A program made the position numbers and the translations under genes. The notes below the pieces were generated by a model, which was not told the origin of the DNA, made no database searches, and saw only the letters and a list, made by a program, of their open reading frames with translations. Positions 1,352 through 44,283 of a DNA stretch of 64,000 nucleotides are shown here, in pieces; position 1 is the stretch's first letter; every line of letters starts with the position of its first letter. Location: positions 18,596,546 to 18,660,545 of the forward strand of contig NC_052158.1 of assembly GCF_902713615.1 (NCBI RefSeq), in the 5' to 3' direction. The DNA is from Scyliorhinus canicula (Eukaryota).

Positions 1352-3140
1352 TTACTCAGTGTCTATCTTAGTTGCCTTACGGGCCCTACCACTATGTCTA
1401 AGTGATTCCCCAGATGATACAGCAGGAGTGGAGGAGGATTGCTGCGAATCGCCCCCCTCGACTCGTTTCTCCTTGGCCAAGCGTTTCCTGGGGCGACCCG
1501 GCCTTGATGGGCCAGGCTGCTCTGCGGGCGTCTCGGGTGACATTGTGCCACCCTGCTCTGCCTGCTGCCCACCCGATGCACCAGGGATGGGACGGGGGGA
1601 GGCCGAGAATTCCAGGACGTCCCGTGATGGACTTAATGGGACGGGTCCCGAAACCTCCTCCTCCCTCGGGGAGCCCGGTGGCCCCCGGGCCTCACTTTGG
1701 GACAGAGGTGCGAGCGGGGAGGTGCCCTATCGCACCACCGACACCTGGCGCTGCCAGTCCTGGAGGCCTGCAACGGTATCCACCAGGATCCGAAGGTTTG
1801 CAGAGACGGAGTCCAGGGAGTTAGACATTCCCGCCAGGGACTGTGCGACCTCAACCTGTGAGTGCACAACGCCATCCAGCACATGTGTCAGGCGGTTGAT
1901 GCTCTACGCGACTGACTGCTGGGACTGTGCCATCGACTGCTGGGACTGTGCCATCGACTGCTGGGACTGTGCCATCGACTTCTGTGACTGTGCCATGGCG
2001 TGCTGCGACTGGCCAATGACCTGCTGAGACTCGGCCAAGGCCCGCAGCGCGCCGGCAATGTCGTGTTGGCTCTGGCACATTGCTGCCTGTGAGAGGGCAA
2101 CCCTGTCCAGGGCCGAGGATGACGCGTGCACATTAACCCCAACGCCTTGCATCACCTGACCCATTGCCTCCACCGCAGATGCCATCCGTGCGGTGTCGGA
2201 CTGGGTCTCTGCCATGAGCGGCACCACTCCCTGCTCGTGGACGCGGTTCGACTCCTCTAACAGCGTCTGCAGAGTCTGGAAGGAAGCCCTCATCCCGTCG
2301 TTGTTTCCCTGGGTTTCTTGAGGCATCGGCTGTGCGGGTGGGCTGAGAAACTCCAGGAACTCCGAAAACGTCTGGGAGCCAGCTGCATCCTGGGCCTGGT
2401 CTGGCCTCCGCGAGTCCGGGCCCTCGGTTGCTCCTACCTCCACCTGCTGTACCTGCTCAACTGTGATGTGCAAACCAGACTGTGACCCAGGAGACTCATC
2501 ACTAAATAGGCCCGCCGGGGTGAGTGTCTCTGGGATGATGGATGTCGTGGGAGAAAGCAGTGCCGCAAGCCCGATGTTTTCGCTATTTAGGCCCTCCTCC
2601 AAGGTGTGGGGCCGCTCAGAGTCCGGAGGGTTATCCTTGGCCATTTCCGGGGGTTGTGGTATCGCCACCCTCTGGGCGTCCTGCTCCGCAGATTGGATTG
2701 GGGAGGATGGGGCTGCCCGCTGATCGGGCACCCTCTGTTGTGCGGCCCTGGGTGAGGTGGCGGCAGATGCCTGTGCCCGTCTGCAGCCAGACGGCCCTAG
2801 TCGTTTGGCATCACGTCCTAGGGAAGAGAATGAGACGGGTTATTTAGATTTGCTCGGCAGGCCGCTGGACGGTCCCAGTGGGAAGCGTGTGAAGGGACAG
2901 AGGATGGGGGAGGTATCCCAGTGGTCAGTGTGTGAAGGGACAGAGGATGGAGGAGGTCCCAGTGGGCAGAGTGTGTGAAGGGACAGAGGATGGGGGAGGG
3001 GTGGGTGTTTGTCAAGGAGGGCAGGGTGTGTGAAGGGACAGAGGATGGGGGAGGGGTGGGTGTTTGTCAAGGAGGGTTGTCTCACTTGCTGCAGATCTGC
3101 CAACCTCGCATAGCGCGATATCCCGGGTGGCAGACCTCCC
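1352..3140 (-). pseudogene. Harbinger partner (Myb/SANT-like) gene, 3' exons, convergent with the transposase
   Basis: ORFs 1904-2731 and 1352-1543 are in one frame, broken only by TAG at 1904-1906 and 1727-1729. Acceptor ttctcttccctag|ga lies at 2817 and donor a|gtgaga at ~3086. It has SQQSMAQ heptad repeats, and its exon layout matches the second copy at 48040-49175. Confidence 0.75.
2860..3075. repeat. Minisatellite (gtgtgtgaagggacagaggatggggga..) in the Harbinger partner-gene intron
   Basis: About 5 degenerate tandem copies are visible directly. Confidence 0.8.
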
Positions 3141-3149
3141 AAAAAGGTC

Positions 3150-3849
3150 TGCACAGATCGCAGCCGCAGTTCAACTAGGGAAACGGCGTAAACAAAGCAC
3201 AGCATGCTTTAACAAGACCGTACACCCCACAGAATTCCAGGTTGGGCAACAGGTAATGCTATCTGTATACAACCCCAGCAGTTTTTTGGCACCAAAATAT
3301 TCCGGGCCATATTCAATTTCGGATAAAATTAGCCCCTCAGTTTACAGGATAAAATATCCTAACGGAAAGACCGCGTGGTTCCATATTAACCAGCTAAAGG
3401 CATATGGAACACAGTCCAACCATGCACACCATGTCCTGCTAGACACAGCAGAACACCTCACCCCGCCCACTAGAGACACGTTTCCACCATCCCCCTCACA
3501 GACCAGTTCTTCATTGGACTCGCCCACGACTCCGCCCACTGACCACGACAGACCACGCCCCGAAACGCCCACAAGCTGCCGCAGCAGAGACAGCGATACA
3601 GACACTGACTCTGAGGACAGCCACAGCACACCACACTACAGCCCACACTGCAGCGACTATGACCCCGACTCCAGTGACCCCATGGAAGTCACCTATATTA
3701 AAAACCCAGACCCACCACCCGACCCCGACTACCCCGACAATACCCATTCACTTTTAGCCCAACACTCTGGCACAGGGACAATTCGTACAGACTTGTCCGC
3801 AACGACGAAAGTGACCCCCGGTCACATAATTCAAAAATTTCATGCCTGA
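3150..3849 (+). CDS. Integrase C-terminal (GPY/F) domain plus Pro/Ser/Asp-rich extension; probably continues to 3954 after a frameshift
   Basis: ORF 3064-3849 in the track. An alternative frame WHRDNSYRLV...NPFVTLFTEAEKK* runs to 3954. Confidence 0.75.
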
Positions 3850-6553: not shown

Positions 6554-6769
6554 GTGTCTGCCTGGGTTTCATACCACAACTCAAAGATGTGCAGGTTAGG
6601 TGGATTGGCTATGCTAATTTGCCCCTTAATTGGAAAAAAAAATTGGGTACTCTAAATTTTTTTTAAAAAGTCAATAGTTATGGCTTACAGGGCACAAATT
6701 CTCGAATAGTCTTATGGTCGCTCTCTTGTACTCACCTCACTGCCATGTGTCCACAGCAGGTGGAGACAG

Positions 6770-7240
6770 TATAAAACATTGGTGAACCCACATATGGAGC
6801 AATATGTGCAATTCTAGTCGCCACTTTATAGGAAGGGTGTGATTGCACTAAAGGGGGTGCAGAGGCGATTCACTAGGATGTTGCCTGGGATAAGTTATGA
6901 TCAGAGGTTGGATAGACTTGGGTTGTTTTCGCTGGAGCAGAGAAGACTGAGGGGCGACATGATCGAGGTGTACAAGATAATGAGGGACATGGACAGGGTG
7001 GATAGGGAGCAGCTGTTCCCCTCAGTTGAAGGGTCAGTTACACGGGGACATAAGTTCAAGGTGAGGGGCAGGAGGTTTTGGGGGGATTTGAGGAAAAACT
7101 GTTTTACCCAGAGGGTGATGATGGTCTGGAATGCACTGCCTGGGAGGCTGCTTCACATCCTTTAAAAAGTAACTGGATGCTCACTTGGCACTCATAACAT
7201 TCAAGACTATGGGCCAAGTGCTGGCAAATGGGATTAGGTG
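6770..7240 (+). mobile_element. CR1 LINE 3' fragment
   Basis: VQRRFTR...LGLFSLEQRRLRGDMIEVYK...NCFTQRVMMVWNALP. Confidence 0.88.
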
Positions 7241-7269
7241 GACAGGTCAGATGGTTTTCATGTGTCGGT

Positions 7270-8151
7270 TGTTTTTCTAATTTCACCTATATGTTTTAGA
7301 ATTCCCTTTATACCAAAGAACCTTACGGGCCAATATTCTAAAAACGGCGAACAGGGAACTACCTCCCTGACTCCAGTACAGGCCTCTGAGAGTGCTAATC
7401 GGGTCAAACTCTCCTTTCAAGTTATCCCCCGGTATAACTCCTACCTTCACTGAAGAATTTTACTTACTTACCCCTTAATGGCATTGATGTCCAGGGTCCT
7501 GCGTTCTTAAGGAAGTGAAGTAAGCTAATAACCACTTTTTCAGGTTAAATTATTTTATTATTAACATACTCTTTTTTATCTCATTAAATTAAAAACATTA
7601 TTTACTTTTTGATGTTGTCTGGTTGGTTGGTGAGGCCTTCAGACTCTCTCTCTCTCTCTTTCACTTTCAAGCCTCCTGGTCATCTCTCCTGGTGCAGTTT
7701 TCTCTTTTCCTCCTCTTCTGTCTTCTGTGGCTGCTGTGGCTGCTGCTGTCCTTCTTGCTTCTTCGGGTGCCGCTGGTGTTCTGCTGCTGGTGTCTTTGTT
7801 CTTGCTTCTTGCCTCGTGGGGAGAAAAAGGGGAGGAGTCTGAAGTCCACGCTGGTTTCTTTGTTTCAGCTGTTCTGATCGGGACCTCTGATAAGGATCGG
7901 ACTTCGGGTCTTAAAGGGGCAGTCCATCACAATTTTCCAACAACACAAAGAGATTTTTTAAAACTTTTTTCTTCTGCCTTTCTCCTGCTGCAGGTTGTAA
8001 TAACCATTTTGATAGACTGAAATTGCTGCCCACAGTTTCTGTGCCCTTCAGCTGCCACCAACCTCTTGTGGGATCTTTCCCTGCACTCTCCCCGATCAGA
8101 TGTTGGCAGACCTCTATGTTTCAAATGACACATTCTGTATTTTCCAGAACA
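7270..8151 (-). mobile_element. 3' LTR (882 bp)
   Basis: Minus strand TGTTCTGG...GAAAAACA, preceded by purine tract caagacgggg. The only difference I found from the 5' LTR is one T in a homopolymer (~7572). Confidence 0.95.
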
Positions 8152-9493
8152 CCCCGTCTTGACATTTGAAACATTACTATAATTTGGTTTATTGTCCCCC
8201 CATCCAATTGTACTAACCTACATCCCTGATCATTGTCATTTGTATGCATATCACCGACCAGTGTCAATACGAGTCTTGTTTTCCGTTCCAGTCCAACTTG
8301 TTTTCCATTTCTGATTGGAATGTGGTAATTGTGATATCTTTTACCCCCCACTGATCCCCTAGTCTTATTAATTTAAAATGTTCAATTGATCCTGCTTGTA
8401 TTCCTAACTTCCCCATTAATGTCTAACATTGTCGTGAATCATGTAAGTCTGCCAACCCCTGGTTTACATGAGAGAACATCTTTCTGACAACGTGTATATT
8501 TTTCCTTTCAGCATTTACAAAACCGCATTGAACCGTCTCTTTTTTTTTCTTCCCAAACAAATTCTCCCTATTGTTCTATACATAGTAAAATTTTTATCTT
8601 ATCTTAACACCTTATTCATTACCTAACCAATAGACTGTGTGTTACACTTTACATATTTTCAACTGTTAACAATTTAATATCAATATCGAAACATCGCTTC
8701 TTGGCTTTTGGAACAATCATTATTACATACTAACTAACCCTCTATTAAAACATTCACAGTTTAGAAATGCGGATCAAGTTATTTAACGACACACATACCC
8801 CCCTTCTCATATATATACAACAGTCCCTATCAATTTACATGAAAATAAAAAAATTTTCTTATCAACGATTATAGCTCTTCAATGCAATATTGTTTTGTTG
8901 CATTGGTAACAATTTTCCCGCCGTAGTATCAAGCTACTGAAATTCTTAACCTATTATCATTGATCATATTGGGGTTCCTCGTCAGTCGCTGCTATCTGCT
9001 GCCGAGACCTTAATGATTCCACTGCGTAGTACATACCCCATGGAGACCACAGATCATCCATCAACTAATGTCCAGTTAGAGATGTCTGACCGGGGGTTTC
9101 ACTGTCCAGTCATAATTTGATATTCTAATTTGCATTTAATTCCCTCAAATTTGTAGCCAATTATATCATTAGTTTCCCCCCAATCCTGTCGAACAGATTC
9201 TTCTCTGGAGTGTAGTTCTCTTCCTTCTCGCGAACTGGTTTGTTATTGGAGTGTAGTTCTCTTCCTTCTTGCGACCTGGTTTGTTATTAATTTTTTCCAC
9301 CTGAAAAAGCAAATGAACAGATCAAGGGTGGAGAGGGCCCTATTCTTTAATTCGGATTATCCCAGAAGTGCCCTCTCCAGGACTTCCGGATTCCTTTTGC
9401 CATCATTTCTTTTTGAACTGGTTTATATTCCATATCCTTGATGTAGTCAAGCCTCCTTCTGTCATTGCACCCCTGAGTGAGATTCGAAGAATC

Positions 9494-11070
9494 TCAAACT
9501 CCTCTGATGCTCACTGGGTCGTGTGTTTCAAGCGTGACACAATTTCTTTTGCTCCAGACACCATGCTTCTCTAATTCAATTGTATGTGTACCCAGAATCT
9601 GAACAATCTTGTCTTTACATTTTACAGTCTCGCGAATGATTTTCCCCGCAGTCTTAGTTGGTAACTTCACCCAAACTTCGTCTCCTACTTGATAATTCCC
9701 AGATTCACTTGGGTCTCCTTGTCCCTGGGGGACAGAGGTTCCAAGGTTGCTATTAAGATCAAATACTATTCTTTCAATGTCTTTATCCCAGCCTTTATTA
9801 TTCTGATTCTTTATGATCCAATCCTTTACTTTTCTTACAGACCTCTCAGCCATTCCATTACTCTCAGGTGCATATTTCACGGCCCAATTGATTGTTATTC
9901 CTCTGTCAGCACAAAAGTTAATAACAGTATTGTTTCTAAAGTGTGGCGCGTTGTCCATTCGGATCGATTCTGTATCCTTTCCTGTGGTCTTAGTGCTGCT
10001 ATTATCTGGCCTTGTGTTTCTGTGCTGTTCCTTACCCTACTCATGGCTCTTCCGAAACTGTCATACCCTTTGCTCATTTGCCAAATTTTAGCTTTGGGGG
10101 TAACGTTTGGTAATTCCAGTAATTTCGTAGAATCAATTTGTTGACTTCCGCCTAATATTTCTCCTATTTTAAGTCCCCTAGCTGTAACCTCTCTTTCCCA
10201 TCCTTCCTGATCTCTATGGTGTACCATTTCTGCTTCTGGATTATAAATATAATACGGTACATCCTTATTTACTGGTTGATAAGTGGAAGGTTGTTGGTGT
10301 TTCCAGTGATCGCTATAATCCCCTATTTCTAATGGTTTAGAATTTTTTCTATTCCCTATTCCTCTCTTTGGTTTGACTATTTCCTCATTCTCGGATGAGG
10401 ATGATAATTCTTCCTGTCCCATCACAGGAGGCGCCATAATCCCAACTATGCCTTGTTCCTCTTCACTTTCTTGTGGTTCAACGAAATGATCGATAAACGC
10501 TTCTTTCTTATGTGTGGCAGATTGCTGAGGCCAATTTTCTTCCTGAAACAGACTTGGATCTGGGTATGGAAAATTGTATCCCGTTGGGAAATTTTCACAG
10601 GAGTCCGAATTCTCTCGGCTATCTGATTCTAGGCCTGATTCCTCGTCACTTTCCATTTCTAATGGTTCATTTTTCTGCAGTTGTTTTATATATTTGCCTA
10701 CCACTTCAGAGTTACTTTTGTGTTTACTAGGGATCTGTATTATTTCTGTCCTGTTTACTCCGTCAATGATTTTAATCAGTTTGGAACACACTTTGCCCAC
10801 TTGAGCAGCTGCATGCTTCTGTCTGTGTCCAAATACGATTAGTGATTCAGCTCGCTTTTCAAATGCAAACTGACAAAGTGCTTTAAGGACCCTGACTGAA
10901 TCTGTATATTGCAGGGCTTTTGGCACTCTAACAAAGAGGGAGATATCTCCGTCTGGATACATATCGCTTGTCCAGGATTTCTTTTGCTCTTTTAATTTCT
11001 TCCATTCCCTTTTCATTTCTACATTTCTCTTGACCGTATCCCAGGGCATGAGAATTACCCTAATTGCCAT
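9494..11070 (-). CDS. Pol-derived protein (~525 aa after repairing one 1-nt deletion at ~9972): degenerate RNase H/tether-like N-terminus, acidic linker, integrase-like C-terminus
   Basis: ORFs 9895-11115 (ATG at 11070, gaaaATGG) and 9494-9958 join as RIPESIRMDNAPHF if one base is restored. MDN...MAER is an exact D(35)E spacing, and YQVGDEVWVK is a GPY/F-like motif. N-terminal homology is weak. Confidence 0.7.
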
Positions 11071-11496
11071 TTTCGGATTTTTAGTTCTGTTCCTGGTTGT
11101 CCCTTTCAGGTGCACTCTGAAATTAAGGATAAGTACCCTTTCTGGGCCCTATCCAAGGCTGACCAAGGCACTATCTTCCTGCTCTAGTTAAGGGTCGATT
11201 GATTATTGGTTTCTGAATATAAGCGTCCCTATTTTCCAGAAAATGTCCGCACAATCCGCCTTACTCTGAGGATGATTTATTCTTTAGCCCCTTTTACCAG
11301 TGATGGATGCAAGATTTTAGTGCTATCACCAAAATGTCTTGCAGACTTTTTCTCAGGGTCAGTATCTTCTAGTCTACTGATTTTCACACCCAACCTGAGC
11401 TTCAGTCCCCTCGATCCACAGAATATCCTTACAAAAGCCAATCACACCTGACTTTCCAAACTAAACTCGGCAGGTAAAGTTTGACTCACACATAGA

Positions 11497-11873
11497 CTAG
11501 AAACTTCTAATATTCTAGCCTTTTTGCCGGTTAGAAACTTCTAATATTCCACCCGTTTCTTGGGAACTAGAAACTTCTAATATTCTAGCCCCTACTCTGC
11601 TTAACTAGAAACTTCTAATATTCTAGCCTCGCTTTACCTAGAAACTTCTAATATTCTAGGCTTTTCTTGGGAACTAGAAACTTCTAATATTCTAGCCCCT
11701 ACTCTGCTTAACTAGAAACTTCTAATATTCTAGCCTCGCTTTACCTAGAAACTTCTAATATTCTAGGCCTTTCTTGGGAACTAGAAACTTCTAATATTCT
11801 AGCCCCTACTCTGCTTAACTAGAAACTTCTAATATTCTAGCCTCGCTTTACCTAGAAACTTCTAATATTCTAG
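11497..11873. repeat. Array of 11 copies of the 22-bp core CTAGAAACTTCTAATATTCTAG with three cycling spacers (107-bp higher-order unit)
   Basis: Higher-order units start at 11567, 11674 and 11781; the spacers are cccctactctgcttaa, cctcgctttac and gc(c/t)tttcttgggaa. Confidence 0.95.
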
Positions 11874-11874
11874 G

Positions 11875-11892
11875 CCTCCACGCTGGGCGCCA
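11875..11892 (-). promoter_or_regulatory. Primer-binding site, tRNA-Lys(CUU)-like
   Basis: TGGCGCCCAGCGTGGAGG versus the Lys1,2 PBS TGGCGCCCAACGTGGGGC (15/18), with no spacer after the LTR CA. Confidence 0.82.
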
Positions 11893-12773
11893 TGTTTTTC
11901 TAATTTCACCTATATGTTTTAGAATTCCCTTTATACCAAAGAACCTTACGGGCCAATATTCTAAAAACGGCGAACAGGGAACTACCTCCCTGACTCCAGT
12001 ACAGGCCTCTGAGAGTGCTAATCGGGTCAAACTCTCCTTTCAAGTTATCCCCCGGTATAACTCCTACCTTCACTGAAGAATTTTACTTACTTACCCCTTA
12101 ATGGCATTGATGTCCAGGGTCCTGCGTTCTTAAGGAAGTGAAGTAAGCTAATAACCACTTTTTCAGGTTAAATTATTTTATTATTAACATACTCTTTTTA
12201 TCTCATTAAATTAAAAACATTATTTACTTTTTGATGTTGTCTGGTTGGTTGGTGAGGCCTTCAGACTCTCTCTCTCTCTCTTTCACTTTCAAGCCTCCTG
12301 GTCATCTCTCCTGGTGCAGTTTTCTCTTTTCCTCCTCTTCTGTCTTCTGTGGCTGCTGTGGCTGCTGCTGTCCTTCTTGCTTCTTCGGGTGCCGCTGGTG
12401 TTCTGCTGCTGGTGTCTTTGTTCTTGCTTCTTGCCTCGTGGGGAGAAAAAGGGGAGGAGTCTGAAGTCCACGCTGGTTTCTTTGTTTCAGCTGTTCTGAT
12501 CGGGACCTCTGATAAGGATCGGACTTCGGGTCTTAAAGGGGCAGTCCATCACAATTTTCCAACAACACAAAGAGATTTTTTAAAACTTTTTTCTTCTGCC
12601 TTTCTCCTGCTGCAGGTTGTAATAACCATTTTGATAGACTGAAATTGCTGCCCACAGTTTCTGTGCCCTTCAGCTGCCACCAACCTCTTGTGGGATCTTT
12701 CCCTGCACTCTCCCCGATCAGATGTTGGCAGACCTCTATGTTTCAAATGACACATTCTGTATTTTCCAGAACA
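11893..12773 (-). mobile_element. 5' LTR (881 bp)
   Basis: Direct repeat of 7270-8151; the ORF-track translations of both copies are identical; directly followed on the minus strand by the PBS. Confidence 0.95.
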
Positions 12774-13082
12774 CGGTACAGACCCGATGGGCAGAAGGGC
12801 CTCTTCTGCACTGTATTATTCTGTGCTTCTGTAAAGTGCTGAGTCATGCTTAAGTAATCTGATAATTATTTGAAGGTACATTAAAAAGACTAGAAAAGAG
12901 GTGGGATGCCTCACATCCTTAAAAAAGTACCTCGCTGAGTGCTTGGCACACCATACAATTCAAGGCTATGGGCAAGTGCTGGCAAATGGGATTAGGAGGG
13001 CAGGTGACATTTCTGGGTTGGTGGAGACTCGACGGGCCGAGAACACTGTAGTGTTCTGTGATTCTGTGAATGTAGAAAGAAT

Positions 13083-13450
13083 GCACGGTAGCATGGTGAT
13101 TAGCATAAATGCTTCACGGTAGCATGGTGATTAGCATAAATGCTTCACAGCTCCAGGGTCCCAGGTTCGATTCCCGGCTGGGTCACTGTCTGTGCGGAGT
13201 CTGCACGTCCTCCCCTTGTGTGCGTGGGTTTCCTCCGGGTGCTCCGGTTTCCTCCCACAGTCCAAAGATGTGCGGGTTAGGTGGATTAGCCATGCTAAAT
13301 TGCCCGTAGTGTCTTAAAAAGTAAGGTTAGGGGGGGGGTTGTTGGGTTACGGGTATAGGGTGGATACGTGGGTTTGAGTAGAGTGATCATGGCTCGGCAC
13401 AACATCGAGGGCTGAAGGGCCTGTTCTGTGCTGTACTGTTCTGTGTTCTA
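13083..13450 (+). mobile_element. HE1-like V-SINE with a tandemly duplicated 31-bp 5' segment
   Basis: B box ggttcgattccc, V-domain core gtgggtttcctccgggtgctccggtttcctcccaca, CR1-like tail. Confidence 0.88.
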
Positions 13451-17509: not shown

Positions 17510-17996
17510 CAGGGCCGGCTCAAGGTACCGGCAACTCGGGCAGTCGCCCGGGGCGCCATGTGCTAGGGGGCGCCATCAACGAGTGCGTAACCGGCGTCAG
17601 AGACCTGCCGACAGAGAGACCGGCCCGCCGATCGGTGAGTCCCGATCATATAGCAGGTCACTCTGGCCCCCCCCCCGAACCGACCCGACCCCCCAGCCCC
17701 CGACCCGAACCCCCCGCCCCCGACCCGAACCCCCCCGACCCGACCCGACCCCCTCGACCCGACCCCCCAGACCCCCCAACCCCCGACCCGACCCCCGATC
17801 CGACTCCCCCGATCCGGCCCGACCCCCCCCCTGATCCCCCCAGACCCGACCCGACACACCCTGACCCCCCCGACCCGACCCCCCCGACCCCCCCACCGCG
17901 AACCGACCCGACCCCCGACCCCCGACCCGACCCCCGACCCGACCCCCGACCCCACCCGACCCGACCCGACCCGACCCGACCCCGCCCGACCCGACC
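17510..17996. mobile_element. hAT-like element end followed by a (CCCGA)n low-complexity tract, truncated at the inverted-duplication breakpoint
   Basis: Begins CAGGGCCGGCTCAAGG...GGGGCGCC; (CCCGA)n runs ~17667-17996. Confidence 0.5.
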
Positions 17997-19533
17997 CGTG
18001 CAGACTCCGCACAGACAGTGACCCAGCTGGGAATCGAACCTGGGATCCTGGAGCTGTGAAGCATTTATGCTAACCACCATGCTACCGTGAAGCATTTATG
18101 CTAACCACCATGCTACCGTGAAGCATTTATGCTAACCACCATGCTACCGTGCATTCTTTCTACATTCACAGAATCACAGAACACTACAGTGTTCTCGGCC
18201 CGTCGAGTCTCCACCAACCCAGAAATGTCACCTGCCCTCCTAATCCCATTTGCCAGCACTTGCCCATAGCCTTGAATGTTATGGTGTGCCAAGCACTCAG
18301 CCAGGTAATTTTTTAAGGATGTGAGGCATCCCACCTCTTTTCTAGTCTTTTTAATGTACCTTCAAATAATTATCAGATTACTTAAGCATGACTCAGCACT
18401 TTACAGAAGCACAGAATAATACAGTGCAGAAGAGGCCCTTCTGCCCATCGGGTCTGTACCGACACATGAAAACCATCTGACCTGTCCACCTAATGGGGCA
18501 GCACGGTAGCATTGTGGATAGCACAATCGCTTCACAGCTCCAGGATCCCAGGTTCGATTCTGGCTTGGGGCACTGTCTGTGCGGAGTCTGCACATCCTCC
18601 CCGTGTGTGCGTGGGTTTCCTCCGGGTGCTCCGGTTTCCTCCCACAATCCAAAGATCTGCAGGTTAGGTGGATTGGCTATGATAAATTGCCCTTAGTGTC
18701 CAAATTTGCCCTTAGTGTTGGGTGGGGTTACTGGGTTATGGGGATAGGGTGGAGTTGTTGACCTTGGGGAGGGTGCTCTTTCCAAGAGCCGGTTCAGACT
18801 CGATGGGCTGAATGGCCTCCTTCTGCACTGTAAATTCTATGATTCTATGATTCTAATCCCATTTGCCAGCACTTGGCCCATAGCCTTGAATGTTATGAGT
18901 GCCAAGTGAGCATCCAGGTACTTTTTAAAGGATGTGAAGCAGCCTCCCAGGCAGTGCATTCCAGACCATCATCACCCTCTGGGTAAAACAGTTTTTCCTC
19001 AAATCCCCCCAAAACCTCCTGCCCCTCACCTTGAACTTATGTCCCCGTGTAACTGACCCTTCAACTAAGGGGAACAGCTGCTCCCTATCCACCCTGTCCA
19101 TGTCCCTCATTATCTTGTACACCTCGATCATGTCGCCCCTCAGTCTTCTCTGCTCCAGCGAAAACAACCCAAGTCTATCCAACCTCTGATCATAACTTAT
19201 CCCAGACAACATCCTAGTGAATCGCCTCTGCACCCCCTTTGGTGCAATCACATCCTTCCTATAAAGTGGCGACTAGAATTGCACACAGTGCTCCATATGT
19301 GGGTTCACCAATGTTTTATACTGTCGCCACCTGCTGTGGACACATGGCAGTGAGGTGAGTACCAAAGAGTGACCATAAGACTATTCGAGAATTTGTGCCC
19401 TGTAAGCCATAACCATTGATTTTAAAAAAAATTTAGAGTACCCAATTTTTTTTCCAATTAAGGGGCAATTTAGCATAGCCAATCCACCTAACCTGCACAT
19501 CTTTGCGTTGTGGTATGAAACCCAGGCAGACAC
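17997..19533 (-). repeat. Right arm of the inverted duplication, carrying its own SINE insertion
   Basis: Reverse complement of 6554-7269 plus 12778-13207. Confidence 0.92.
18495..18852 (+). mobile_element. Full-length V-SINE inserted only in the right arm
   Basis: TSD CTAAT at 18490-18494 and 18853-18857; the empty site ggattaggtggac is at ~7231-7243. Confidence 0.92.
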
Positions 19534-39057: not shown

Positions 39058-39245
39058 CACTTAGGTTTAGCTGGTTTAGCTCACAAGGCTAAATCGCTGG
39101 CTTTTAAAGCAGACCAAGCAGGCCAGCAGCACGGTTCGATTCCCGTACCAGCCTCCCCGGACAGGTGCCGGAATGTGGCGACTAGGGGCTTTTCAGAGTA
39201 ACTTTATTGAAGCCTACTCGTGACAATAAGCGATTTTCATTTTTC
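39058..39245 (+). mobile_element. Short tRNA-derived SINE of another family
   Basis: A-box-like ggtttagctca, B box ggttcgattccc, tail shared with the variant V-SINEs. Confidence 0.65.
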
Positions 39246-41551: not shown

Positions 41552-43100
41552 GCAATAACGACGTGCTCACTGAAGCTTAGTTTGGGTTCTGCCAGGGACA
41601 CTCAGCCTCTTACATCATTTCAGTCTTGGTTCAAACATGGACAAAAGAGCTGAACTCAAGAGGTGAGGTGAGAGTGACTGCCCTTGACATCAAGCCAGTA
41701 TTCAATTGAGTATAACATAGAAAAACTGGAGTCAATGGAAAAGCTCTGCTGGTTGGAGTCACACCTGGCGCAAAGGAAGATGGTGTGGTTGGAGGAGGTC
41801 AATCATCTCAGCTCCAGGACATCACTGTTGGATTTACTCAGGGAAGAGAGAAGCAAAAATAGACATTGGACCTCTGGAAAATGTGGCTGGACAAGTAATA
41901 ATAGGAAACAAAGAGATGGCAGAGGAACTGAATTGTTACTTTGCATCAGTCTTCACGGTGGAAGACACCAGTGGGACACCTGAGCTCCAGGAGAATCAAG
42001 GGGCAGAGGTGAGTGCAGTGACCATCACTAAGGAGAATGTTCTGGGTAAACTGAAAGGTATGAAGGTGGATAAATCACTTGGACTGGATGGACCACAACC
42101 CAGGGTCCAAAAAGAGATAACTGAGGAGATTGTGGAGGCATTGGTGGTGATCTTTCAGGAATCACTGGAGGCAGGGACGGTGCCAGAGGACTGGAAAGTG
42201 GAAAATGTAACACCACTGTTTAAGAAGGGAGGGAGGCAGAAGATGGGAAATTACAGGCCGGTTAGCCAGACTTCGGTTATTGGTAAGATTTTAGAGTCCA
42301 TTATTAAAGATGAGATCGCGGAGTACTTGGAACTGCATGGTAAAATAGGACTGAGTCAGCACGGCTTTGTCAAAGGGAGGTCATGTCTGGCAAATCTGTT
42401 AGAGTTCTTTGAAAACGTAACAAGGAAGTTAGACAAAGGAGAACCAGTGGACGTGATTTATTTAGATTTTCAGAAGGCCTTTGACAAGGTGCCGCATACG
42501 AGGCTGTTAAATAAGTTAAGAGCCAATGGTGTTAAAGGTAAGATCCTGGTATGGATAGAGGATTGGCTGACTGGCAGAAGGCAGAGAGTGGGGATAAAGG
42601 GGTCTTTTTCAGAATGGCAGCCGGTGACTAGTGGTGTGCCTCAGGGGTCTGTGCTGGGACCTCAATTTTTCACAACATACATTAATGATTTGGAAGAAGG
42701 AACTGAAGGCACTGTTACTCAGTTTGCAGATGATACAAAGATCTGTAGAGGGGCAGGTAGTATTGAGGAAGCAGGCAGGCTGCAGAAGGACTTGGACAGG
42801 CTAGGAGAGTGGGCAAAGAAGTGGCAGATGGAATACAATGTGGAAAAGTGTACAGTTATGCACTTTGGAAGGAGAAATGGGGGCATAGACTATTTTCTAA
42901 ATGGGGAAATGCTCAGGAAATCAAAAGCACAAAGGGACTTGGGAGTCCTTGTTCATGGTTCACTTAAGGTTTATGTGCAGGTTGAGTCAGCAGTTAGGAA
43001 GGCAAATGCAATGTTAGCATTCATGTCGAGAAGGCTAGGATACAAGAGCAGGGATGTACTTCTGAGGCAGTATAAGGCTCTGGTCAGACTCCATTTAGAA

Positions 43101-43410
43101 CATAGAACATACAGTGCAGAAGGGGGCCATTCGGCCCATCGTGTCTGCACCAACCCACTCACTTCCACCCTATCCCTGTAACCCAATAACCCCTCCTAAC
43201 ATTTTTGGGCATGAAGGGCAATTTAGCATGGCCAATCCACCCAACCTGCACGTCTTTGGACTGTGGGAGGAACCGGAGCACCCGTAGGAAACCCACGCAG
43301 ACACGGGGAAAATGTGCAAACTCCGCACAGTCAGTGACCCAGCGGGGAATGGAACCTGGGACCCTGGAGTTGTGAAGCCACAGTGCTAGCCACTTGTGCT
43401 ACTGTGCTGC
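43101..43410 (-). mobile_element. V-SINE inserted in CR1
   Basis: Reverse complement of the consensus, splitting VRLHLE|YC. Confidence 0.85.
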
Positions 43411-43581
43411 CACTTTGGAGTATTGTGAGCAGTTGTGAGCCCCGTATCTAAGGAAGGATGTGCTGGTCTTGGAAAGGGTCCAGAGGAGGTTCACAAGAAT
43501 AATCCCTGGAATAAAGAACTTGTTGTATGAGGAATGGTTGAGGACTCTGGTTCTGTACTTGTTGGGGTTTAGAAGGATGAG

Positions 43582-44283
43582 TCCTACCTGGGCGAGTCTC
43601 AGTTTAATTCAATTTAAGGTGCTGCATAGGGCGCACATGACTGGGGCAAGGCTGAGCCGGTTCTTTGGGAGAGAGGACAGGTGTGTCAGGTGTTCAGGGA
43701 GCCCAGCAAACCACACCCACATGTTTTGGGCGGGCCCTGCGCTGGAGGGTTTTTGGAGGGGCATTGCGGAGACGCTGTCAAGGGTGGTTGGTTCCAGGGT
43801 TGAGCTGGGCTGGGGGCTCACAATATTTGGGGTAGCAGTGGAGTCGGGAGTGCAGGAGGCGAACGAGGCTGGTATTCTGGCCTTTGCGTCCCTGGTAGCC
43901 CGGCGCAGGATTCTTCTACAGTGGAAGGATGCGAGGCCCCCGGGCGTGAAATCCTGGGTCAACGATATGGCTGGGTTTATCAAACTGGAGAGGGTCAAGT
44001 TTGCCTTAAGGGGGTCGGTGCAAGGGTTCTTCTGACGGTGGCAACCGTTTCTAGACTTTCTGGCGGAGCATTAGAGGATGGTCAGCAACAGCAGCAATCC
44101 GGGGTGGTGGGGGGATCGTTTTTTCCTTTATCGGGTGTGTATATTTGTTCTCATGTTAATTATTTTTGTTAATTTATTGTTTTTGTATTGGGGGGAGGTC
44201 TACTGTTCTTATTTTTATTTTTCTTCTGTTCTTGTTGTTTTAAACTTGCTGAAAACTTGAATAAAAATTATTTTTTAAAAAAA
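43582..44283 (+). mobile_element. 5'-truncated L1/Tx1 insertion (ORF2 C-terminal zinc-knuckle region, 3' UTR, polyA)
   Basis: TSD AGAAGGATGAG at 43571-43581 and 44284-44294; IQFKVLHR..CVRCSGSPANHTHMFW. Confidence 0.92.

Follow-up and report, generated by a model that had tools for sequence, protein, structure and literature searches.

A row of eleven predicted RNA hairpins behind the primer-binding site of a catshark foamy-like retrovirus: a possible packaging signal

The leader of a foamy-like endogenous retrovirus (ERV) of the catshark Scyliorhinus canicula harbours an array of eleven 22-nt cores (11497-11873, minus strand), each of which is predicted to fold into a hairpin that presents the same 10-nt loop. 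We propose that the array is an RNA cis-signal of this retrovirus. In the reading that we prefer, and to which we give an even chance, it would offer Gag or Pol a multivalent row of docking sites and so mark the unspliced genome RNA for encapsidation; both the binder and this function are what we infer from the arrangement described below. Positions are those of the window, that is the whole 64-kb stretch of DNA that was analysed, and papers given by PMC number are cited from the excerpts that were available.

The minus-strand core sequence is CTAGAATATTAGAAGTTTCTAG. It is identical in ten of the eleven copies, and the copy at 11531 differs by three substitutions. Every core comprises a 6-bp inner stem and the 10-nt loop, and the ends of the spacers lengthen the stems. 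The cores start at 11497, 11531, 11567, 11605, 11638, 11674, 11712, 11745, 11781, 11819 and 11852, which gives core-to-core periods of 34, 36, 38, 33, 36, 38, 33, 36, 38 and 33. Nine of the cores are found in three near-identical 107-bp units with three hairpins each (11553-11659, 11660-11766 and 11767-11873, minus strand). These units differ from one another at only 1-2 positions and are, to judge from their sequences, the product of a recent tandem amplification. In minus-strand order the three units are followed by the odd copy, a spacer of a fourth type and the last copy. The original prediction had described eleven copies starting 1 nt after the primer-binding site (PBS), as we found too, and spacers cycling A-B-C in three 107-bp units; the units were recovered, but the fourth spacer type before the last copy, present besides the three cycling types, had been missed.

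In the odd copy (11531-11552, minus strand) the three substitutions leave the loop unchanged; one pair is kept as G·U, one is lost and three Watson-Crick pairs are found beyond the core. The last copy (11497-11518, minus strand) has a 9-bp stem and is directly followed by a 10-codon upstream ORF (start 11493). At the other end, the first core begins 19 nt past the end of the 5′ LTR, i.e. 1 nt past the 18-nt PBS, and the stem of the first hairpin extends to the last base of the PBS. The loop is identical in all eleven copies, while the spacer types have 7-10 of 12-16 bases in common. Outside the array no match to the core with up to six mismatches is present in the 64-kb window, and three matches with seven mismatches were found. 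A protein-coding role of the array was rejected, as it contains no ATG and the 38-nt period breaks the reading frame. In total, three short upstream ORFs of 10, 7 and 6 codons were found at 11461-11493, 11870-11893 and 12107; two of them bracket the AUG-free array, an arrangement reminiscent of the shunting in prototype foamy virus (PFV). In addition, a 9-nt half of the core (TAGAATATT, minus strand) occurs once per LTR, at 11955-11963, about 70 nt upstream of the PBS, and at the matching position of the 3′ LTR. Judged by its sequence, this half-core could pair with the loop or arm of a core or could be a relic.

The host of the array is an LTR element of 5,504 bp on the minus strand (7270-12773). 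Its 5′ LTR (11893-12773, 881 bp, TG...CA) and 3′ LTR (7270-8151, 882 bp) are the same except for one base in an A run; since a single indel is all that separates them, the insertion is young. Within the 5′ LTR we found a consensus splice donor, GTAAGT, at 12094, upstream of the array, and an AATAAA/TATA-like tract at 12183 (both minus strand). The PBS follows at 11875-11892 (minus strand). A 4-bp target site duplication (TSD) flanks the element at 12774-12777 and 7266-7269. The insertion lies within a host repeat (6659-7237 and 12774-13159), of which a 97%-identical inverted twin is found about 5 kb away at 18076-19431. This twin supplies an empty site near 18420-18470 that has the four bases only once, confirming the TSD; a SINE-like copy is located near the same spot in the twin. 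The placing of the array in a retroviral post-PBS leader was borne out. No further pieces of the array-bearing ERV were found elsewhere in the 64-kb window. Among its other features are a Tf2/gypsy-type integrase C-terminal fragment (3034-3849), about 330 bp of degenerate (CCCGA)n repeats (17669-17998), an ordinary LINE, seen as an ORF with a non-LTR-type reverse transcriptase (41721-44035; RVT_1, E 6e-33) and a weak zf-RVT match behind it, and a tRNA-Phe with anticodon AAA predicted by ARAGORN (39069-39156), probably a pseudogene or a piece of a SINE. Copies of tRNA-like SINEs are numerous throughout the window.

Downstream of the array, a truncated ORF1 (9895-11070, minus strand) is gag-like by its position and by the annotation of a published relative. 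Its database relatives are only two, both S. canicula proteins, with 87% and 82% identity, and the similarity to them stops near 9970, where a remnant of the integrase (core and C-terminus; 9497-9970, minus strand), the end of pol, begins. The Gag of foamy-like ERVs is described as having no Cys-His boxes and a GR/GQR-rich C-terminus; in this element the C-terminal half of gag is absent. No Pfam family was detected on ORF1. The integrase remnant gives weak matches to lenti-, delta- and foamy integrases that do not tell these groups apart, and the reverse transcriptase is deleted in this copy; protease, reverse transcriptase and RNase H were not detected in the element. Longer relatives were found neither for the integrase remnant (176 candidates) nor for ORF1 (3811 candidates). 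The region at the position of env in the published relative (8152-9496, minus strand) has no open stretch of more than 73 codons in any sense frame, and no perfect central copy of the polypurine tract (PPT) was found (best 8/11), most of pol being deleted here; such a copy in pol is among the traits of foamy-like ERVs. Just downstream of the pol remnant, a 41-bp tandem duplication (2.4 copies) with 14-nt purine runs is present at 9190-9288; purine-rich motifs also occur in foamy CAS-II. From its sequence, the element is internally deleted and non-autonomous, and its decayed genes between near-identical LTRs suggest that it last moved in trans.

For the N-terminus of ORF1, the ESM Atlas gave no usable match, the AlphaFold model had a pLDDT of 51 and a Foldseek search of PDB and BFVD with this model gave no match with an E-value of 0.001 or below. 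A macrodomain-like or RNA-binding fold, which had been guessed for this part, thus found no support and was dropped. Residues 202-265 of S. canicula LOC119967918 show a weak Macro-domain match after a gag-like N-terminus (E 0.005, below the Pfam cut-off). This arrangement may be a gene-prediction fusion; Macro ORFs are reported in epsilon-like fish ERVs in the part of PMC4977317 available.

Several traits place the element among the foamy-like ERVs, for which GGGTG at the border of PPT and 3′ LTR and a 4-bp TSD are described (excerpt of PMC5210030). The GGGTG motif precedes the 3′ LTR, and the 4-bp TSD is present on both flanks and in the empty-site copy, although gammaretroviruses have a TSD of the same length (PMC5210030). 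The PBS is of the tRNA-Lys type: set beside the one that PMC4261875 prints for mammalian foamy viruses, it agrees, by eye, at 16 of 18 positions. Moreover, LTR ends, PBS and leader are similar, by eye on clipped supplement lines, to those of ERV-Spuma.0-Sca, the Spuma label of which comes from PMC10699275. This relative, a foamy-like ERV of S. canicula, is listed in supplementary Table S4 of that paper as a recombinant consensus of 9,220 nt in which gag, pol and env are all present.

We found the core in this supplement as well. In ERV-Spuma.0-Sca an array lies directly behind the same PBS; the passage stands in the same part of the supplement as the header of the record, and the LTR start of the record matches that of the catshark element. 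About eight cores can be recognised, five unclipped and three across line breaks, in a reading by eye of lines clipped by about nine letters and of a consensus, so that eight is not a measured copy number. The two elements are alike in LTR start, PBS, array, spacer types, odd copy and last copy, and are similar in LTR length (866/869 in the relative, 881/882 here). They differ in total length, the relative with gag, pol and env ORFs having 9,220 nt against 5,504 nt for the deleted element, and in core number (about eight against eleven). In the legible lines, the letters of the array are near-identical, whereas the adjacent LTR lines (U3 and U5) have visibly diverged. The counterpart of the odd copy has an unbroken stem there, and the outer core pair is closed by a different standard pair. 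On the other hand, the first spacer of the relative is shorter and the next hairpin has no flank extension, which counts against the reading that we prefer. In the available main text of PMC10699275 the terms hairpin, palindrom- and untranslated gave no match, and the array is unmentioned there. As the full-length relative carries it, the array is, on these sequences, a feature of the family and not an invention of the deleted copy; with eleven against about eight cores, it may have expanded there.

On the RNA strand of the element, the predicted stems reach beyond the core and measure 8-10 contiguous bp in ten of the eleven copies, and the odd copy at 11531 has a predicted stem of 4+3 bp around an internal loop. 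The original prediction, a 6-bp stem with a 10-nt loop, was therefore right for the loop and wrong for the length of the stem. Its expectation that core and stem pairing are conserved across copies held, with stems predicted in all of them. In all copies the predicted fold is more stable on the RNA strand than on the opposite strand, an asymmetry that loses its consistency when DNA parameters are used. RNAalifold on the copies returned an 8-bp stem, and local folding gave a stem probability of 0.98 for all copies but one, which had 0.80. In an unrestricted fold the probability of the local hairpin was about 0.6 (0.42-0.66), as the copies pair with one another. The folding z-score of the whole array was -7.0 against 100 dinucleotide shuffles, a value that repetition alone inflates.

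The array has five distinct flank contexts, which allows the native pairing of upstream with downstream flanks to be compared with all permutations. It ranked 2 of 120 on the RNA strand, against 63 of 120 for the opposite strand. None of 5000 pooled and none of 5000 side-kept shuffles equalled it, and 4 of 5000 did so when the letters were shuffled within flanks. Going outward from the core, the first four positions in these contexts comprise 8 Watson-Crick and 6 G·U pairs, no A·C and 6 pairs of other kinds. Among the six distinct copies 85% of cells pair, and changes on both sides in 4 cells were matched by 0 of 500 shuffles; a count at the level of pairs was non-significant (97 of 500 shuffles). 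These statistics rest on five or six related contexts, and related sequences can beat the shuffles of the pair-count tool. When a common core was placed in all contexts, the ranks were 1 of 120 on the RNA strand and 2 of 120 on the opposite strand. The latter rank indicates that part of the flank matching is strand-neutral, which would fit a dyad in DNA.

This brings in the possibility that the cores act as DNA, in a row of dyads that a dimeric transcription factor, an insulator protein or a viral transactivator would bind so as to work on the 5′ LTR only. The core is a dyad at 16 of 22 positions and invariant, and the invariance of the loop is equally expected of a DNA-binding site. Precedents exist in the available parts of two papers, namely the ZAM 5′ UTR, which is an enhancer (PMC1885662), and the arrays of palindromic motifs in Sireviruses (PMC2829016). 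Nevertheless, stem extensions with G·U but no A·C pairs on the transcribed strand (6 against 0) would be meaningless in duplex DNA, and the sites of the foamy transactivator lie in U3 (excerpt of PMC5035957), so that we hold a DNA-level role to be distinctly unlikely. Flanks that pair with their own partners, tolerance of G·U without A·C and an invariant loop together suggest that selection most likely acts on an RNA hairpin presenting a fixed loop. On this predicted fold, a stem kept by pairing and a loop kept by sequence form the pattern expected of a protein-binding hairpin.

A special case of a DNA-level function, a stress-responsive enhancer bound by HSF1, had been part of the original prediction because of the nGAAnnTTCn in each core. 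This motif is indeed present in all eleven cores, and a gap-type match of 8/9 occurs at one spacer type; moreover, HSF domains are capable of binding elements with two sites, and there is diversity among real elements (PMC8379338, in the part available). However, typical elements need at least three pentamers and the head-to-head arrangement is the weaker of the two-site forms (PMC8379338). Only two-site matches are found here, with a best contiguous three-pentamer match of 7/9, and a score of 8/9 or better was reached in 290 of 300 spacer-letter shuffles and in 46 of 300 random host windows. Beyond the array, 23 GAAnnTTC sites occur by chance in the 64-kb window. The most direct discrimination available between heat shock and hairpin lies in the two bases after each core, where an A would complete a third pentamer. 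They are never A in any of the five contexts, though the spacers are 32% A (291 of 20000 shuffles); these two bases pair instead with the upstream flank. On these sequences, the comparison speaks against heat shock and favours the hairpin, and we give the HSF1 enhancer almost no credence.

If the array acts as RNA, the hairpins might link two co-packaged genomes. Dimerisation by kissing loops was rejected: the 10-nt loop is not self-complementary, its loop-loop duplex is at +1.8 kcal/mol and 1986 of 2000 shuffles self-pair equally well or better. A special extended dimer was rejected too, as the array hairpin has no special advantage in dimerisation over loop-shuffled controls. No special long-range partner of the loop was found elsewhere in the element. 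In a more general form of linkage, the two genomes would exchange hairpin arms, with as many as 11 intermolecular duplexes as the outcome. Every arm contains a palindrome, CUAG, that resembles the middle of foamy SII (UCCUAGGA), the position of which the array shares (excerpt of PMC5874298), predicted homodimers lie 6.6 kcal/mol below two monomers and the copies cross-pair in global folds. Arm swapping is possible for any hairpin, however, and about 240 of 1000 loop-shuffled controls dimerise equally well or better. Since the palindrome is buried in the stem, the loop cannot kiss and its invariance is left unexplained by arm swapping, we regard dimer linkage as unlikely.

We also considered that the array is a neutral by-product, in which repeated template jumping of the reverse transcriptase has amplified and homogenised a chance palindrome. 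The recent date of the 107-bp triplication and the copy number differing from that of the published ERV-Spuma.0-Sca consensus, as far as the latter is legible, agree with such a process. It would not account for the strong divergence of the spacers next to unchanged loops, nor for base pairing having been re-established in each flank pair, and this origin appears very improbable.

All the evidence for an RNA structure applies equally to a regulator of expression, in which the hairpins bind a host or viral factor for the export or stability of unspliced RNA, block premature polyadenylation or set the translation of Gag. The AUG-free array between short upstream ORFs would suit such a role. Known export elements such as the RRE and CTE are mostly found further 3′, which argues against it, and no Rfam covariance model matched at E up to 1 in the region 7000-13000 of the window. 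In PFV, gag is translated by shunting and its export runs via HuR/CRM1, according to the excerpt of PMC5035957. Altogether we rate an RNA-level regulator as rather unlikely.

The docking row for Gag or Pol, the reading that we prefer, would work as follows. In the unspliced genome RNA each copy would fold locally into its 8-10-bp hairpin with the 10-nt loop unpaired, one per 33-38 nt, and a protein, most likely the viral Gag or else a separately made Pol, would dock multivalently on the row of hairpins. The bound protein would then select the array-bearing RNA for encapsidation. As the splice donor at 12094 lies upstream of the array, spliced messages would lose the array if this donor is used, and only unspliced RNA would carry it. 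By its position and predicted fold the array thus resembles a Psi in being structured and, given use of the donor, located in the leader of the unspliced RNA. Five older, diverged hairpin types would underlie the array, and the three-hairpin block of 107 nt may since have gained or lost copies by template jumping. Besides the array, the deleted element has retained its PBS, its two LTRs and the 3′ end of pol, a set consistent with a helper mobilising it in trans.

What is published of foamy viruses, in the excerpts available, speaks on both sides of such a role. CAS-I, which spans R-U5-PBS-leader and 5′ gag, is indispensable for transfer and contains elements for dimer linkage and for Pol capture; the major splice donor is situated in the LTR, as it is in the catshark element (PMC5035957). 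Foamy-type Gag is without zinc fingers, and the basis of selective genome packaging is stated there as unresolved (PMC5035957). Counting against a leader signal, foamy packaging also requires CAS-II in pol, and mutants of the leader palindrome still package (PMC5874298, PMC5035957). The lack of a perfect central PPT copy in the deleted element counts on the same side.

The original prediction had gone further and viewed the array as multiplied packaging signals by which a parasite out-competes its helper. That the element is non-autonomous agrees with this view. It is weakened by the full-length relative, which already has about eight cores by eye on its clipped lines, so that only the step from about eight to eleven could be specific to the parasite, in a comparison of one deleted copy with one published consensus. 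An extended form of the idea, which we regard as doubtful and which is an analogy to a natural array of MS2 loops, would make the genome-selection signal a tunable polymer. It would consist of 8-11 identical protein-binding hairpins, their number changing in steps of three and selected upward in deleted, helper-dependent copies, as more loops would win more capsid protein.

Likenesses to known systems were found in several groups. With the CAS-I leader of PFV and its dimer-linkage sites SI-SIII, as far as described in the excerpts, the catshark element shares the position behind the PBS, tRNA-Lys priming, the splice donor in the LTR and palindromic letters centred on CUAG. PFV has one SII palindrome, whereas the catshark element has 8-11 hairpins in which CUAG is buried in the stems and the exposed loop is not self-complementary. 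The Psi of murine leukaemia virus (MLV), SL-A to SL-D, likewise consists of repeated hairpins with a common loop (GACG in SL-C and SL-D) in a post-PBS leader (PMC13736810, in part). By analogy, these two GACG hairpins may be taken as the closest repeated case that we found; they are only two, they kiss and they serve a different type of Gag, in contrast to the 8-11 catshark hairpins with a 10-nt loop that cannot kiss. Arrays of sites are also known from insects, gypsy carrying 12 Su(Hw) sites. With the 5′ UTRs of Drosophila ZAM and gypsy and the palindromic motifs of Sireviruses, further LTR elements carry regulatory sequences or arrays of motifs outside their coding parts (PMC1885662, PMC2829016, excerpts). 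These work as DNA sites, or are believed to, while the strand-specific G·U pattern of the catshark array points to RNA.

The virus family itself is already published and structured leaders are the rule; the repeated hairpin array behind the PBS is the new part, of which no description was found in the literature searched, mostly outside subscription journals. A leader made of one short hairpin repeated 8-11 times is an unusually simple and discrete candidate ligand for a foamy-type Gag, and a series of hairpin copy numbers could be read from shark genomes. Counting its hairpins would also show whether defective retroelements, in competing with their helpers, acquire cis-signals.
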